From Gammaproteobacteria bacterium (GTDB lineage: Bacteria > Pseudomonadota > Gammaproteobacteria > Thiohalospirales > Thiohalospiraceae), in the NCBI GenBank assembly GCA_024277595.1, contig JAJRUV010000090.1, positions 547 through 64,546 of the forward strand: a stretch of 64,000 nt of DNA, read 5' to 3'. Of the stretch, positions 55,486 through 58,316 are shown in pieces (the first letter of the stretch is position 1; each line of letters opens with the position of its first letter). The translations under genes and the position numbers were made by a program. The notes under the pieces are model-generated. The model worked only from the letters and a program-made list of their open reading frames with translations. It was not told the origin of the DNA and made no database searches.

Positions 55486-58316
<2,831 letters not shown>

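Follow-up and report, generated by a model that had tools for sequence, protein, structure and literature searches.

We report that the ligA gene in a 64 kb stretch of DNA (the window, by which we mean the whole of the stretch that was analysed) carries two separately disabling lesions, an in-frame amber codon and the substitution E182G, which lie 930 nt apart. We consider the chances about even that this copy of ligA, whose smc-zipA-ligA surroundings are ancestral, is a real and young loss-of-function allele or early pseudogene, and this would imply that another ligase is encoded outside the window. As random error ignores gene boundaries whereas selection respects them, the lesions, together with a gene-specific excess of changes at invariant sites, favour a real and recent loss of constraint over noise. 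The ligA frame occupies 56283-58316 of the forward strand (677 codons), and re-translation confirmed that its sole internal stop is the TAG at 57765-57767 (codon 495), as had been described in an earlier reading of the DNA made without database searches (the sequence-only reading).

Pfam matches for residues 1-494 comprise the Nlig-Ia domain, the adenylation domain (E 7e-93), the OB fold and the Zn finger, and residues 496-677, which are in the same frame, match HHH_2 (1e-24) and BRCT (2.5e-19), in agreement with the earlier statement that what follows the stop is still LigA and free of frameshifts. With X placed at the stop, the interrupted frame therefore holds the full Ia-NTase-OB-Zn-HhH-BRCT domain series of an NAD+-dependent LigA, and it scores 939 bits over its whole length with the NCBIfam LigA equivalog NF005932 (cut-off 369), whereas the LigB model gives only 187 bits for the same frame (cut-off 498). 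An uninterrupted frame for all of the nick-sealing modules is lacking, as the TAG at codon 495 lies inside the HhH domain, and a listing of open reading frames gives two pieces of the gene, 56283-57767 (494 aa) and a remainder beginning with the ATG at 57924. An entry identical to this 494-aa product exists among the public proteins (P0011, with a single member and from NCBI only), and thus the stop belongs to the deposited sequence.

Alignment to E. coli LigA (PDB 2OWO) places the TAG at Glu486, with a numbering offset of 9 between the two proteins, which bears out the expectation of the sequence-only reading that a Glu belongs at this site. The window protein resembles the E. coli enzyme (2OWO; NF005932) in having all six modules in the same order and in its smc-zipA-ligA neighbourhood, and KxDG Lys124, the four Zn-finger cysteines and the NAD+ residues of the Ia domain are all kept. 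It differs from E. coli LigA in that its frame is broken at codon 495, the motif III Glu has become Gly and six residues that are invariant in 106 LigAs are replaced.

The position of the stop bears on whether the 494-residue N-terminal product could itself act as the ligase, whether unaided or with the help of a C-terminal fragment that is translated separately. There is some precedent for a shortened enzyme, since LigAs without a BRCT domain work in vitro and in vivo (PMC10504179) and a natural BRCT-less LigA is found in Ca. Pantoea carbekii (PMC4350177). However, in E. coli LigA the Zn finger spans residues 405-432, the HhH domain 433-586 and the BRCT domain 587-671 (PMC4797296), and the window stop is not at a domain border but approximately one third into the HhH domain, just before the equivalents of R487 and G489, so that about two thirds of the HhH domain is missing from the 494-aa product. 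R487 and G489 are essential DNA-binding residues of the E. coli enzyme (PMC8123306), both of which would be gone (PMC8123306; PMC4797296), and the HhH domain forms, with the NTase and OB domains, a clamp round the nick (PMC5052709; PMC4797296). LigB and the BRCT-less LigA of Ca. Pantoea carbekii are likewise shorter at the C-terminus than canonical LigA, but there the whole HhH domain is kept and here the cut is within it (PMC4350177). Nor is the arrangement that of a split gene, as the break is inside the HhH domain and the first in-frame ATG, GTG or TTG past the stop is at 57924, 52 codons on; a restart at this point would yield just half of the HhH domain plus BRCT. The N-terminal product also lacks the motif III Glu. 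We therefore attach almost no credence to a functional truncated ligase, which the sequence-only reading had rightly called unexpected.

The locus order, queF / smc - zipA - ligA - CHASE-PAS-GGDEF-EAL - EI24, is shared with eight syntenic loci of related assemblies, one of which comes from a hydrothermal-vent metagenome (Table 1). The ligA orthologues are intact at all eight of these loci, in contrast to the window copy with its internal stop and lost essential residue. All 13 of the comparable neighbour genes align over their full length to one of the loci (L082), at 56-93% identity, and for the remaining ~35 large reading frames of the window the Pfam domains are matched in full. Gene content is of the free-living type, including a cbb3 oxidase, biotin synthesis and c-di-GMP signalling.

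Table 1. Positions in the window of ligA, its lesions and replaced residues, and the adjoining genes.
Feature	Position	Strand	Basis
smc, intact, upstream; synteny anchor and control gene	51969..55475	+	
zipA, intact, translationally coupled to ligA	55486..56286	+	
Overlap of ligA start and zipA stop (ATGA)	56283-56286	+	
ligA codons 1-494: Ia, nucleotidyltransferase, OB, Zn finger, first third of HhH	56283..57764	+	Pfam, NF005932, P0011
GCC CGG, Ala69-Arg70; Thr-Gln (DSPTQRVG) in 106 outgroup LigAs and all 17 close relatives	56487..56492	+	
Motif III lesion GGA GCA TGT (Gly182-Ala183-Cys184); GAA/GAG GTA/GTT TTT/TTC (Glu-Val-Phe) in all relatives	56826..56834	+	alignment
CAG, Gln219; Leu in all other LigAs (SLRQLDP, two residues past R208 equivalent)	56937..56939	+	
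GAT, Asp421 in Zn finger (CPVCGS to CPVCDS); Gly invariant in 16 closest relatives	57543..57545	+	
CGG, Arg467; Leu in >=95% of LigAs (GDKLVEQL, first HhH)	57681..57683	+	
In-frame amber TAG, codon 495, E. coli Glu486 equivalent; GAG/GAT/GAC in relatives	57765..57767	+	translation, alignment
ligA codons 496-677 and natural TGA: remaining HhH (RLG, essential R487/G489 equivalents) and BRCT; no indel	57768..58316	+	
CHASE-PAS-GGDEF-EAL gene, intact, downstream; order as in all relatives	58348..61140	+	

The nearest intact LigAs are 85, 84 and 80% identical to that of the window, and a sense codon stands at the TAG site in 123 of 123 aligned relatives. In the seven nearest syntenic relatives codon 495 is GAG (five), GAT (one) or GAC (one), and the TAG is thus one base away, by a G>T change, from GAG, the codon which the sequence-only reading had also expected here. 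A second sequence of the same species was not found: 1) among the genome-collection matches listed, of which the best was 68%; 2) in metagenomes searched by an exact DNA pattern with the codon left free; 3) in a protein-guided metagenome scan, which had a best match of 61%; or 4) as a second assembly of the species in a collection of 5.8 billion protein clusters. One relative of 493 aa (P0126) was considered as a second truncated LigA and rejected, as it is merely an N-terminally cut gene call.

The second lesion is in motif III, which reads EVRGGACM in the window LigA and EVRGEVFM in every relative, and arises from three adjacent second-position changes (GAA GTA TTT to GGA GCA TGT). Thus, although the catalytic lysine is present (K124, E. 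coli K115), Gly182 occupies the position equivalent to E173, which is Glu in 123 of 123 relatives. In E. coli, Glu173 is among the essential residues (PMC5052709 Table 1; PMC8123306). Gly182 thus takes the place of the Glu that coordinates the adenosine ribose O2'. The sequence-only reading, which saw no decay, had overlooked this lesion together with changes at five other ultra-conserved positions. Further unusual replacements in the protein are D472G, E473K and G475N.

It might be argued that the remodelling of motif III and other changes close to the active site are adaptive, for example to a cofactor altered at the ribose 2' position, with the TAG alone being an error or a recent accident. 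For random decay it would be odd to alter the second position of three consecutive codons in an invariant motif, and the frame is otherwise preserved. Losing the acidic ligand of the 2'-OH is also the classic NAD-to-NADP switch of other enzyme families, although we know of no precedent for it in ligases. We nevertheless think adaptation highly improbable, because the Glu is universal among the relatives, because E173 is essential in E. coli (PMC5052709) and because the stop, together with such drastic replacements at a distance from the pocket as G421D in the Zn finger and L467R in the HhH domain, suits decay better.

Several local features of the gene were also observed. The mutated motif III stretch, GTGGAGCATGTA (56824-56835), is an 11/12 match to GTAGAGCATGTA (56622-56633), which lies 202 nt upstream, and all three window-specific motif III bases equal those of the upstream copy, as would be expected if several bases had been copied from a template in one mutation. 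When donors were sought systematically, with control genes and lineages for comparison, this idea was not supported (chance ~0.1 after multiple testing), and the 11/12 match may be due to chance. The T69A/Q70R cluster is situated in an imperfect inverted repeat, 56481-56495 / 56597-56611 (CCCGGCGG / CCGCCGGG), and three of the four changed bases of the cluster raise complementarity to the other arm of the repeat, a pattern which may have some significance. Within ligA there are also an A8 run (57699-57706) and a T8 run (57994-58001), both in frame although such runs are indel hot spots; the A8 run arose by window-specific changes, GAT GAA AAA GGC having become GGT AAA AAA AAT.

The level of constraint on the gene was assessed with a relative-rate test, in which the window LigA and its 17 closest relatives were compared at the 178 columns where 106 outgroup LigAs show 100% invariance. 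At six of these columns the window LigA carries a replacement (T69A, Q70R, L177M, E182G, L219Q and I393M), while the 17 relatives have 0-2 each and six in total (mean 0.35), giving a Poisson P of ~2e-6 for the six of the window. No replacement at the invariant LigA columns is seen in the P0003/L086 lineage, whose branch is longer. Two genes of the same contig served as controls: BipA shows a single private change, a conservative one, over 333 invariant columns, and in the adjacent SMC, of which the C-terminal 620 aa were compared, there are no changes at 58 invariant columns or at 82 when the threshold is 95%. The catalytic motifs checked in ten other window genes are all intact. These clean same-contig controls indicate that the excess of changes at invariant sites is confined to ligA.

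A gene-specific relaxation of purifying selection is thus suggested by the ultra-conserved sites but not by other measures, and it is only the test on deeply invariant columns that shows decay of ligA. The overall pairwise dN/dS of the gene is ~0.09, the same as among its relatives, and no indels were found relative to them in spite of the two homopolymer runs; both results count against a pseudogene. No faster decay was seen past the stop. Private changes at columns conserved among eight close genomes amount to 5.0% in ligA and 3.0-5.3% in its neighbours, with similar values in the control lineage L086. A decay signal sought in private substitutions, BLOSUM scores, the codon-position spectrum, and pairwise and three-point dN/dS was likewise rejected, as ligA could not be distinguished from that control lineage by any of these. 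As a rough estimate, six changes in 178 invariant codons correspond to ~0.5-3% neutral divergence, at which approximately one nonsense mutation would be expected and at which zero indels and an unchanged dN/dS are unsurprising. The low dN/dS and the lack of indels thus mean that any decay of ligA is young.

The same data have to be weighed against a simpler possibility, that sequencing, consensus or assembly errors in a metagenome-derived contig produced the TAG, and perhaps also the changes in motif III, and that the organism's ligA is intact. LigA is essential, the nonsense lesion is a single-base G>T change of the classic oxidative-damage artefact type, indels are absent, dN/dS is low, and both contig and proteins occur just once, in NCBI only. 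Such an artefact would, however, need at least seven unusual substitutions within 1.3 kb of one gene, on a contig where BipA, SMC, ten catalytic motifs and 48 other reading frames are clean; the TAG and motif III are too far apart to come from one bad read, and there are zero frameshifts across the window, contrary to what a noisy long-read assembly would contain. On balance we consider an artefact rather unlikely, while leaving it a real share of the probability in view of LigA essentiality, the free-living-type gene content and the status of the species as a singleton in public data. The contig also carries a seemingly intact mutY (HhH-GPD, Fe-S cluster motif, NUDIX_4) at ~19440-20522, which is relevant in that GAG>TAG is a G>T change, the type which MutY prevents.

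A further possibility is that the UAG is read through, either by a suppressor tRNA encoded elsewhere or by basal near-cognate decoding, and that the cell has full-length LigA from it, little ligase being sufficient. The 182 codons downstream of the stop are in frame, free of indels and strongly LigA-like, and the base which follows the stop is C; UAG-C is a weak terminator context. On the other hand, the read-through product would still be without the essential motif III Glu, and TAG is a common terminator here, as it ends 9 of the 49 window genes (18%; TGA 29, TAA 11), in some cases at a position which coincides with the end of the orthologue. No in-frame TAG was found in the other conserved frames of the window. 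Searches of the 64 kb for tRNA genes (ARAGORN) and Rfam families found none, and hence neither a tRNA with a CUA anticodon nor Pyl genes there, and the RNA fold around the ligA stop is no better than that of shuffled sequence (z = -0.30). The stop is moreover conserved in none of the relatives (0/123), which is not the pattern of programmed read-through. Recoded UAG, as in pyrrolysine proteins and amber suppressor strains, is similar in that an in-frame UAG is followed by a part which is still conserved, but here one gene only is affected, UAG is a common terminator, the ancestral residue is Glu or Asp, the stop is unconserved and the window has no suppressor or Pyl genes. With TAG common as a terminator, no tRNA or Rfam match in the window, an unremarkable fold and relatives that all have a sense codon, neither code reassignment nor a conserved recoding site is supported. 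The stop-codon suppression raised by the sequence-only reading, as well as the suppressor tRNA and the recurrent TAG usage in other genes by which it might have shown itself, hence received no backing from the window, and we regard read-through as very unlikely.

We hypothesise, in favouring a young loss of function, that purifying selection on ligA was recently relaxed. In the sequence, a G-to-T change has converted Glu495 (GAG) to amber, which ends translation within the HhH DNA-binding domain, and an independent second lesion has turned Glu-Val-Phe of motif III into Gly-Ala-Cys with loss of the ribose O2'-binding Glu; besides this Glu, five more residues that are invariant across LigAs are replaced. 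If ligA is inactivated then nick sealing must come from another ligase, which would be encoded outside the window and could be a second LigA or LigB-type enzyme or an ATP-dependent one. The genes of the 64 kb window were searched with Pfam and include no replacement ligase, neither a ligB nor an ATP-dependent type, which counts against a pseudogene. The earlier suggestion of a recent inactivation compensated by another ligase has been strengthened by the loss of the motif III Glu and the ligA-specific excess at invariant sites.

A gene interrupted by a nonsense codon is of a familiar kind and is unusual only in its target. Young single-nonsense pseudogenes are catalogued in recently host-restricted pathogens, and the window ligA resembles them in its one-base lesion without indels, its intact neighbours, its unchanged synteny, its low dN/dS and an incipient excess of changes at sites under constraint. 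It differs from them in that ligA is held to be indispensable in bacteria. All bacteria are considered to require the NAD+-dependent ligase, and reports of ATP-dependent ligases describe them solely as additions to it (PMC5052709); moreover, in the literature that we found ligA is absent only from the smallest insect-endosymbiont genomes (bioRxiv 10.1101/2025.10.31.685726). It would be a much stronger claim, and one which we think distinctly unlikely, that a free-living-type, sulfur-oxidiser-like gammaproteobacterium of a vent-associated clade no longer needs LigA because another ligase, in the boldest version an ATP-dependent one, took over the sealing of replication nicks, and that its ancestral ligA is here seen at an early stage of decay.

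If a fixed loss of ligA in a free-living-type genome were real, it would mean that the replicative ligase can be supplanted under natural conditions and would point to the displacing enzyme, and displacement by an ATP-dependent ligase would contradict the rule that such enzymes only supplement an essential LigA. This is of some consequence, as LigA is an antibiotic target because it is regarded as universal and essential in bacteria. Should the lesions instead prove to be assembly errors, they would serve as a warning that a single MAG contig can concentrate several disabling substitutions in one essential gene.

Other features of the window and of the related loci were observed in passing. 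Between the GGDEF-EAL gene and the EI24-family gene there is a non-coding gap of 412 nt (61141-61552), where relatives have 1-160 nt or, in L090, a yjbR gene; the gap is devoid of ORFs, of any YjbR remnant and of Rfam matches. A block at 20862-24561 encodes a PRiA4_ORF3-like protein, three ORFs without a Pfam match and a sigma-70-family gene, has a G+C of 0.48-0.53, which is below that of its flanks, and may be an acquired island. In locus L085 (GCA_054018415.1) a tRNA-synt_1c (gluQ-like) gene and an acetyl-CoA synthetase gene, which are separate in the other loci, are called as a single 926-aa product (19193-21973), so that either the two genes have fused or a stop codon has been lost. Second-messenger genes are plentiful in the 64 kb, with three GGDEF or GGDEF-EAL proteins and a HAMP-adenylate/guanylate cyclase (731-2827, 4544-6103, 18275-19435 and 58348-61140).
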